From Iphione sp. A-MEVVRFRX5 (taxonomy: Eukaryota), in contig OZ320316.1 of NCBI GenBank assembly GCA_976226885.1, forward strand, positions 38,874,001-38,938,000: a DNA stretch of 64,000 nt, in the 5' to 3' direction. The translations under genes were made by a program, and so were the position numbers. The notes beneath the pieces were generated by a model, which saw nothing but the letters and a program-made list of their open reading frames with translations, did not search any database and was not told the DNA's origin. Shown in pieces: positions 25,183 through 28,080 of this stretch; position 1 is the stretch's first letter, and the number at the start of each line of letters is the position of its first letter.

Positions 25183-26013
25183 ATGGAGAAGTTCTGTAAA
25201 CGTTGTGATCAAAAGCATTTACCACCAGTGGGGAAAAAATGCAAGAAGGATCTGACGATGAAGCAGATTGACGAGGTTTCTGAGGCTGGGACTCCAGATA
25301 TTCCGGTTGATCCTGTAGAGAAGCGATTCCAGAGAATCGAGACGATGTTGGAGGCCTTGGTAGTGAGCAGACCATCAGCCAAGAAGCCTGTGACAGAGGA
25401 GACCCAAGAAAGCTCATCGAGTGATGACGATGATTCTTCAGATGACGAGGAGGGCTCTTCAAAGAAAAAGTCAAGAAGAGGTAAGAAGTCCAAGTCCAAG
25501 AGATTTTCTATTTCTCGTTATGTGAAAAGCGAGAAGGTTGAATCATACGAGGACTTAGTGGTGGGCTCAGTTGGCCTCTTGAAGAAACTCATCTCATCTG
25601 GCGAAGATGTGGAGGGTTATATTGACCATATAGCCTTCTTAGCAGATCGTGCTTCAACGAAAATATATACGAGCTCATCGTTGATCGAATATGACAAGGA
25701 GATGAGGAAGAAAGCGAGAGACGAGGGCATCGGTAGTTTTTCGTATGGTGACACGGTGTTGGTACATAGATGTCTCAGTTTGGATGCTACCGTGGACGTT
25801 GCCAGAGCGAAAGAAAACAAGAAAAAAGCAAAGAAGACTAAGGGTGTGTGCTTCAGATACAATAACTCGAGCTGTGAGGATGCAAGTTGCAGATTTCGAC
25901 ACATCTGTGAGCTGTGTTTCAAGGCGGGACACAGAGCGAGTGAGTGTACGTCAGCGAAATCATCGGGCGGTGAACCGGATAACAAGTCCAAGTCATCAGC
26001 AAAAAAGGATTGA
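25183..26013 (+). CDS. gag: Gag-like protein with N- and C-terminal zinc-finger motifs
   Basis: ATG at 25183 within ORF 25144-26013. N-terminal CKRCDQKHLPPVGKKC, an acidic/Ser and Lys-rich linker, and C-terminal CFRYNNSSCEDASCRFRHICELCFKAGHRASEC (CCCH plus CCHC). Confidence 0.9.
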   Translation: MEKFCKRCDQKHLPPVGKKCKKDLTMKQIDEVSEAGTPDIPVDPVEKRFQRIETMLEALVVSRPSAKKPVTEETQESSSSDDDDSSDDEEGSSKKKSRRGKKSKSKRFSISRYVKSEKVESYEDLVVGSVGLLKKLISSGEDVEGYIDHIAFLADRASTKIYTSSSLIEYDKEMRKKARDEGIGSFSYGDTVLVHRCLSLDATVDVARAKENKKKAKKTKGVCFRYNNSSCEDASCRFRHICELCFKAGHRASECTSAKSSGGEPDNKSKSSAKKD

Positions 26014-28080
26014 CTAGGGGTTGGTGAATCAAGGACAATCGATAATTCTTCTCTGGATGAGAAAGAGGCAGTGGACTTAACTCCGAGTATTAATTATTGG
26101 TTTTTCAGAGAGAGCAGCAACGGGGACGTTTTAAATAATGGTAGCGAAGCAGTTGCCACGTGTGACGTTGTTGATGACGCGGTTGACGTCACACCGATAA
26201 GTGTGACAGGACTTGGAGTACGCGAAGTGTTGAGGAAATATGTTGTCTCTGATGCTGACGGAGAAGATGATTGTGCTTATGTGAGTAGCTTTAATGGGAA
26301 TCAGTTGATTCCTATTACCAAAGATTGTATTGATGGTAATTGTGAATGCTCCCATGTTATAGGGGGAATTGTTAGCCCGTTGAGGGCGTGTAGATGCTTC
26401 TGTTATTTGTCCCGCTCTAGTCTCGACGATGATATTGTATTGGAACTGTGGAAAGGAATAAGTAATGGTTTCAATATTGTTGATGATGACTGCCGAACAG
26501 AGTATGAGTGTGCTAACTATAGCTCTATTTTATGTGGAGACTTTAAAGCAGAGATGGATGAGAAAGTGCGCTCGGAATTAAGTAAGGGCTTGATATCTGA
26601 GTGTGATGTAAGACCTCGCTGTGTGAATGCATTGGGAGGGGTCCCTAAGGGAGATGGGAGTCTGAGACCAATTACAGACTGCTCAATGCCCGTGGGCAAA
26701 TGCATTAATAACTTCATGAATGACACTCATAAGGAATTTTCCTTCAAATCAGTGGATAATGTGTGCAATATGCTGGAAGAGAATGAGTATATGGCTACAT
26801 GTGATATTAAGAGCGCTTATCGCTCTGTCCTGGTCTGCCCAGAACATAGAGAATTTCAAGGCTTCAGTTGGCAATTTGATGGTGAAAATAGTAAATATTA
26901 TGTTAATAATTCTCTATGTTTTGGGCTGAAGTGTGCTCCATACATATTTAACAACCTATCTGAACTAATCGTATCTGAGTACAAGCATAGATGTAATGGT
27001 AGAATTGTTAATTACTTAGACGATTTCATTGTGCTAGGAACATGTGAAGAATAATGTGAAAGGTTGCAGGATGTTCTAAAAAGTGTAATAAGGGATGTTG
27101 GTTTCCGTGTAGCGGAGGAGAAGTGTACCCCAGCATCTAGAGTCTGTAAATTTCTTGGAATTCAAATAGACTCAATGAAGCAAGAATTGTCATTACCACC
27201 TGAGAAAGTGTCAGCAATTAAAAATAAGATTGTTGAAGCTCTAAGTAAAGAGAAGTTGTCGAAGAGAGAAATCGAGAGCCTTACTGGGTCTCTCTCACAT
27301 TGTGCAACGGTTGTTAAAGGTGGCCGTACATACACTCGGTGCCTCTATGATTTGGTGAAGTCGATTGAAAAACCCAGTAAGAGAGTCACTCTAAGTGAAG
27401 AGATTAAAGGTGATTTGAGGTGGTGGTTGAACCTGATTGATGTTTTCAATGGTAAGAAAAGAATCATTCGTACAAGGATGATTGAAGAAGTGTTAACCAC
27501 TGATTCATCATTGGATGGATTCGGTGGTTGGTTTGGTAAAGACTGGTTCTACGGGAAGTGGTACGACCAGGATTGGCCTATGGATGTTTGTGACCACCAT
27601 TTTGAGGAGTGCCCTAAAGGCGAATGTTATGACAAGCATATAAATGTACTTGAATTATGGGCAGTGTTTGTGGCCTTGAAGCGATGGAGCCCACTTCTGA
27701 AAAACAAGCTGATTCTTCTAAGAGTAGACAACACTAGTGTTATGTATATGCTTCAAACAGGCAGGAGCCACAATAAGACCTGTATGAATTGGTTAAGAGA
27801 GATTTTTTGGCATTGTGTATTTAACAATATTTGTTTTCGTGTTGAATACATAGACTCAAAAAGTAATTATCTGGCGGATGCCTTTTCAAGAGCTAAAGAG
27901 AGTAAGGTGTTGAGTAGAGTGTTTGAAGATCTTTGGTCAACCAAAGCATGTTGTAGAAACAAAATGTGGTGTATTTACAGGGAAACTCGGACGTCTGCGG
28001 AAAGAGATGCTACAAGTGAGGGACTCGGCCCTGTCGGAAAACACCAAGAAATCGAGGCAGAAACAGCTGGAGAACTATGA
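26014..28080 (+). CDS. pol: Pol (reverse transcriptase + RNase H); one in-frame TAA at 27052-27054
   Basis: The frame is open from the codon after the gag stop. RT motifs LRPITD, CDIKSAYR, LCFGLKCAP, YLDDF and FLGIQID are present, as are RNase H motifs TTDSS, ELWAV, VDNTS and LADAFSR. ORFs 26071-27054 and 27064-28080 share a frame (GAA GAA TAA TGT GAA). Confidence 0.92.

Follow-up and report, generated by a model that had tools for sequence, protein, structure and literature searches.

Programmed readthrough of a conserved UGA-CUA(G) probably joins Gag to Pol in Ngaro-type retrotransposons of Iphione sp.

The gag-like and pol frames of a clade of Ngaro-type tyrosine-recombinase (YR) retrotransposons in the genome of Iphione sp. 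are joined in one reading frame over a conserved UGA-CUA(G), which is very probably a signal for programmed stop-codon readthrough. On a full-length RNA, most ribosomes would terminate at the UGA and release Gag; a minority would read through, presumably as a near-cognate tRNA decodes the UGA, and produce a Gag-Pol fusion. Leaky termination would then keep Gag in large excess over Pol, as in gammaretroviruses. One copy lies in the window, a stretch of 64,000 nucleotides of contig OZ320316.1. An initial annotation had described gag as ending with GAT TGA (26008-26013) and continuing in frame with CTA GGG GTT GGT, the first in-frame ATG coming at 26554, after 180 codons and past the LWKGISNGF segment; both descriptions are confirmed in the sequence.

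The element occupies approximately positions 25023-29156, as delimited by its split direct repeats (Table 1). According to the definition that we applied, split direct repeats of the form A1...B1-A2-B2 with internal repeats downstream of YR (PMC4157794), it fits Ngaro (order DIRS): it has this repeat layout, a gag-like ORF, RT and RNase H in ORF2 and YR as the last ORF, and no methyltransferase was found, which separates it from DIRS1 and PAT. For a methyltransferase domain, the 693 aa of an intact pol yielded no Pfam match with E<=1; about 60 residues of this pol extend beyond the RNase H match. The gag-like ORF1 carries an N-terminal Cys/His motif, a Ser/acidic then basic tract and a C-terminal Cys/His knuckle, and matched no Pfam family. 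RT is detected above the cut-off (RVT_1, E 9.6e-14) and RNase H below it (RT_RNaseH, E 2.5e-4 and 4.8e-4); no protease domain was detected in the element. The YR protein has 1618 relatives at E<=0.001 and contains the H-x-x-R motif. A motif similar to the Cys-rich segment that precedes RT occurs in relatives from other assemblies, and a search of this segment against the atlas returned only matches below 0.9, without a family. The TGACGT-containing motifs downstream of the stop are presumably CRE-like, and a second TGACGT(CA) cluster lies directly upstream of the stop. Elsewhere in the window, an open frame of 187 codons on the minus strand (36737-37300), without Pfam match, is unrelated to the element.

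Table 1. Features of the Ngaro-type element, in positions of the window (a slash inside a motif marks the splice point)
Feature	Position	Strand	Remarks
Split direct repeat A1	25023..25152	+	Repeat family D2; 96% identity with 28962-29091
Gag-like ORF1, 276 aa + TGA	25183..26013	+	Labelled gag from position and motifs
Predicted splice donor GAG/GTAAGA	25478..25486	+	Exon end 25480, phase 1; GGT codon in 52/53 intact families; putative use
Predicted readthrough cassette GAT TGA CTA G	26008..26017	+	TGA, CTA and G kept in 121, 123 and 107, respectively, of 124 junctions
pol: pre-RT segment, RT, RNase H-like; frame of gag	26014..28080	+	RVT_1, RT_RNaseH; TAA 27052-27054 breaks this copy
TGACGT and TGACGTCA motifs, putative enhancer or internal promoter	26163..26191	+	Motif at +120..+230 in 41/53 families
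Conserved Cys-rich pre-RT segment	26326..26400	+	Cys columns near-invariant; located 5' of this copy's first AUG
First in-frame AUG past the stop	26554..26556	+	First Met column common to all 53 intact families
Predicted splice acceptor TATTTACAG/ before YR	27972..27980	+	Phase 1 (YR frame); AG in 53/53 families, 67% pyrimidine upstream; putative use
Tyrosine recombinase ORF, overlaps pol end	27981..28990	+	Phage_integrase E 0.0035 (below cut-off); AHGFRRGG motif
Split direct repeat B1	28928..28973	+	Repeat family D3
Split direct repeat A2	28962..29091	+	Repeat family D2
Split direct repeat B2	29111..29156	+	Repeat family D3; 100% identity with B1

The copy in the window is decayed: its pol is interrupted by a premature TAA within RT, and its YR frame continues beyond the position at which its relatives stop (28916-28918). 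Alone, it is therefore unable to show that the TGA is programmed, and the other copies are decisive. A DNA search of the same genome returned 20 matches, several of them two parts of one element; 18 of the 20 have TGA CTA at the end of gag, and the other two are frameshifted copies. When the RT region served as query in a protein search, 150 of 3899 candidates were scored, and we examined the best 130 of these copies, whose median RT identity is 64% and which group into 114 families at a threshold of 80% nucleotide identity. In 124 copies, from 109 families, the position of the junction was identifiable (L053, L078, L079, L119, L134 and L145 were dropped). As the copies are the best matches to the RT of the window, the following counts are valid for its own clade only, hereafter clade A.

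At the 124 junctions the stop position is TGA in 121 copies and CGA, AGA and TGT in one each, with no TAA or TAG; the next codon is CTA in 123 copies and CTG in one, so that C directly follows in all of them; the base after CTA is G in 107 copies, T in 10, A in 4 and C in 3, and nothing is conserved beyond it. The codon before the stop is GAC (83), GAT (35), GAA (5) or GCT (1), and two codons past the stop 13 different residues are found. Elsewhere in pol, CTA accounts for 366 of 3000 leucine codons (12%), and the stop codon of pol itself is mixed among the 56 intact copies (TGA 25, TAG 19, TAA 12). When 53 intact and non-redundant families are aligned by codon, the synonymous excess has a median of 0.04 over 617 codon columns, versus 1.0 for the TGA column and 0.95 for the CTA column. 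Because synonymous sites are close to saturation across copies and the pol stop is mixed, the conservation of TGA and CTA indicates a constraint at the nucleotide level, which recent common descent does not explain. The initial annotation had proposed to check whether other copies share the junction while neighbouring synonymous sites vary, and they do; neither a private stop, nor a different frame, nor an unconserved context, which it had named as counterevidence, was found. Loss of the stop occurs in four copies (L076, CGA; L062, AGA; L065, TGT; L078, deletion), each of them single and without a close sister; in L076 and L078 it leaves a continuous gag-pol frame of 1000 and 965 codons, respectively. 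The codon alignment also contains an invariant TGT Cys column in RT, which probably reflects CpG avoidance.

The conserved context corresponds to a known class of signal. Readthrough motifs include UAG-CAR-YYA (Type I) and UGA-CUA (Type II) (PMC3159437). The element shares the stop, the 3' context and their order of importance with Type II signals (UGA-CUA/CGG, as in the alphavirus replicase) and with mammalian UGA-CUAG genes, and differs in that it joins a retrotransposon Gag to Pol. In reporter assays CUA enhances readthrough, and a change from CUAG to CUAC reduces it by more than half (PMC9841425); the order of conservation after the stop in our copies, C > CTA > G, fits these data. Against readthrough, a 3' structure, which is usual for Type II signals (PMC3159437) though not universal, was not found. 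Neither local folding nor summed pairing over 53 families revealed a conserved one, the mean folding z being -0.04 and -0.12 immediately 3' of the stop and -0.7 to -0.9 at +40..+200, and no consistent long-range pairing was seen. The signal would thus lie mainly in the short context.

More distant relatives extend the picture to other contexts. A search that took a distant relative as its query scored 70 of 14835 candidates, of which 30 loci were examined, and a follow-up search added 30 loci from the best 150 matches and 20 hand-picked at lower ranks. In clade B of the same genome, an in-frame TAG CAA YYA is present at 26 of 29 readable junctions (30 loci; L226 is without gag, and the exceptions are L208, L230 and L231) and at 8 of 9 further loci; four of the 26 come from visual inspection, three of them in copies with frameshifts and the fourth in a copy lacking a matched knuckle. 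The YYA codon is TTA in 21 cases, TCA in 2, CTA in 2 and CCA in 1, so that the amino acid varies and YYA stays. This is the exact Type I motif of the tobamovirus replicase, here at the gag/pol junction of a nuclear retrotransposon outside the clade of the window. A further group, L241-L251 (clade E plus L251), has an in-frame TGA at 11 of 11 junctions followed by a variable codon (AGG 5, GGT 2, TGG, AGC, CTA, CAG), and is nearest to clade A in a quick tree of 79 rows, which is midpoint-rooted and contains no reference Ngaro sequence, so that we claim no order of events. Within it, the pol frames of L245 and L246 reach about 970 codons and possibly hold one extra domain. Among 21 metagenome loci, six have a single in-frame TGA (L151, L152, L153, L156, L161, L167), followed by CTA only in L151 (TGA CTA A, with the first Met at codon 302); the other 15 are decayed, frameshifted or too short. 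Non-canonical contexts (AGG, GGT, ACG, CCT) thus characterise clade E as well as five of the six metagenome loci with TGA, and an in-frame stop can be conserved without carrying a known motif.

A third clade shows stop-start overlaps, such as TAATG. At L174, L180, L186, L188, L191, L192 and L194, an AUG overlaps with the stop codon of gag or directly adjoins it (as TAATG, TGATG, ATGA or similar), and an AUG is also found at the gag stop of L176, L181, L195, L196 and L198; these lineages are candidates for stop-restart coupling. At L172, L173, L175, L177, L178, L182-L185 and L187, pol overlaps the end of gag in the -1 frame by 49-181 nt, without an AUG at the stop. Other searches were largely negative: no relative was found among 43 pattern matches in a single-protein metagenome scan, 62 pattern matches in viral contigs or 586 candidates in a YR word-index search, and a search for Gag homologs returned one protein. 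A fused relative of 966 aa (P0006), with a Trp near the expected junction, was excluded from the counts, its junction being known from the protein only.

Synonymous sites are also constrained at several putative splice signals. In the 53 intact families, further peaks correspond to the gag donor AG/GTAAG (52/53), a donor-like CAG/GTGG (49/53) and the YR acceptor (53/53). The donor-like site, which includes a GGT codon, lies 38-50 nt upstream of the stop in clade A; the corresponding region of the window, around 25966, is without GT. In addition, 89 of 124 copies have a donor GTRAG located exactly at +46, counted from the stop's first base, within an otherwise hypervariable linker; this donor is absent from the window's own family. 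The gag donors, the +46 donor and the YR acceptor are all in phase 1, so that YR is likely expressed as a spliced Gag fusion: splicing of Gag-coding sequence to the acceptor before YR would make the recombinase separately. In the window, donor 25481 and acceptor 27980 predict an in-frame fusion of the N-terminal part of Gag to YR. By eye, the same layout of a Gag-like N-terminus and YR is present in a RefSeq model of Branchiostoma floridae (XP_035659582.1, P0257), a gene model and not a proof. Stops located within a zone of 50-55 nt before an exon junction escape nonsense-mediated decay. Splicing at +46 might leave the stop inside this zone, 43 nt upstream of the junction, and in such an RNA the same stop might gate Gag-YR as well.

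Whether Pol has a start of its own bears directly on the interpretation. Among the 56 intact copies, the first AUG after the stop ranges from codon 2 to codon 180, and 9 of 53 families have one within 10 codons. In seven families the stretch up to the conserved Cys cluster contains no Met; the other 46 carry at least one AUG within it, at varying positions. Upstream of the first Met that every family shares, 27 columns are near-invariant, including the Leu after the stop, and no AUG is conserved upstream of the Cys-rich segment of Pol. The view of the initial annotation that Pol is without an obvious start therefore holds as regards a conserved AUG, and not as regards AUGs altogether: distant first AUGs are a minority, and the argument rests on the former. 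Pol would accordingly seem to require translation coming from upstream.

The opposite view, that a shorter mRNA transcribed from an internal promoter encodes Pol, or that ribosomes reinitiate at an AUG further downstream, the in-frame stop being a leftover, appears improbable. It could draw on the TGACGT motif found in most families, on the minor junction promoter of the Candida element Tca2 (PMC2194720), on the AUGs that precede the Cys cluster in 46 of the 53 families and on those at the gag stop of other clades. However, a Met lies between the TGACGT motif and the Cys cluster in only 30/53 families and is missing anywhere before the cluster in seven, few families have an AUG close to the stop, and the conserved UGA, CUA and frame, as well as the termination-weakening contexts, are left unexplained. 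A private nonsense mutation in a decayed, once fused gag-pol copy would agree with the state of the window copy and its second stop in RT, and is refuted by the recurrence of the same stop at 121 of 124 junctions in 109 families. Decoding of the UGA as selenocysteine is very unlikely. Clades A and E always have UGA as their stop, which would fit it, but the three observed point substitutions put Arg (twice) and Cys at this position, within a linker that is variable, the stop of clade B is UAG, and an Rfam scan of 24500-29500 in the window copy found no SECIS, only one weak, unrelated lncRNA match.

The alternative closest to the splice signals, which the initial annotation did not consider, takes TGACTAG as a 3' splice site: a gag donor would be joined to CTAG, the stop removed and an in-frame Gag-Pol mRNA produced, with a small exon of 39 nt between CTAG and the +46 donor. 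CTAG/ is in phase 1, like both gag donors, and was for this reason tested as an acceptor. The element does contain conserved splice signals; the YTGAC at the stop resembles the branch-point consensus, with the donor-like CAG/GTGG upstream; and an alternative phase-1 YAG exists in 9 of the 17 copies without AG versus 38 of the 107 with AG, a small apparent excess. The pattern of substitutions points the other way: the A of AG is altered in 1 of 124 copies and the G in 17 (Fisher p 9e-5), and AG is kept in 44/53 intact families versus 53/53 at the YR acceptor (p 0.003). There is no pyrimidine tract, pyrimidines making up 31% of the upstream sequence compared with 67% at the YR acceptor. L074 and L112, recent and separate insertions that are 98.8% identical, both have TGACTAT, with another CAG at +16, and five intact families (L105, L133, L144, L149, L150) have neither AG nor any other phase-1 YAG. 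TAA, which would suit both a stop and a branch point, is never observed. The putative branch A is only 5 nt from the end, shorter than the branch-point-to-acceptor spacings known in animals. The CAA-YYA of clade B would also be left without explanation. We thus regard this alternative as unlikely, if somewhat less so than a separate Pol mRNA, and retain programmed readthrough. As a description of the element, the initial annotation was right about the junction and had overlooked the TAA in RT, the run-on of YR and the splice signals around the stop.

In-frame gag-stop-pol arrangements are known from other retroelements. In the gammaretrovirus MuLV, gag and pol are also in frame over one stop and Pol is made as a fusion (PMC4178896); the stop is UAG with a pseudoknot (Type III; PMC3159437), whereas the present element uses UGA-CUAG, has YR in place of an integrase and has no detected protease. 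The Candida retrotransposon Tca2 has gag-UGA-pol in one frame (PMC2194720), but is an LTR element, and its in-frame UGA junction alone gave no readthrough in a yeast reporter (PMC2194720). Ngaro ORFs have been described as separate or overlapping, without readthrough (PMC9210276, PMC3266345): those of Xenopus Ngaro-like elements all overlap (PMC9210276), and Ngaro ORFs are usually without overlaps (PMC3266345). No description of readthrough in YR retrotransposons was found in the accessible excerpts of the literature searched, which included PMC8547959, PMC3783388, PMC6681497, PMC7192593 and PMC2699510, the original Ngaro description and the principal review being outside its reach; PMC13517186 gave no match for retrotransposon, DIRS or Ngaro. 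Readthrough is a known mechanism that would here act in a class of element for which we found no description; the original description and the review may mention in-frame stops, and supplementary ORF tables (e.g. of PMC9210276) may also bear on its novelty.

How YR retrotransposons express Pol and recombinase from one RNA is not addressed in the passages found in these sources, and the junction provides a specific and testable answer, which rests on more than 100 diverged families. As a tentative extension, somewhat short of probable, one leaky UGA-CUAG may gate both enzymes, with unspliced RNA giving Gag-Pol and +46-spliced RNA giving Gag-recombinase from a stop whose short distance to the junction would protect the RNA from nonsense-mediated decay, and the YR lineages of one genome may have switched among Type II, Type I and stop-restart signals, which would make them a rich natural collection of recoding signals that has so far gone unrecognised. 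Annotation pipelines would call such stops decay and place Pol starts at arbitrary AUGs. Both classic viral readthrough motifs are under selection in nuclear mobile elements of a single genome, where they offer natural variants for studies of stop-codon context.
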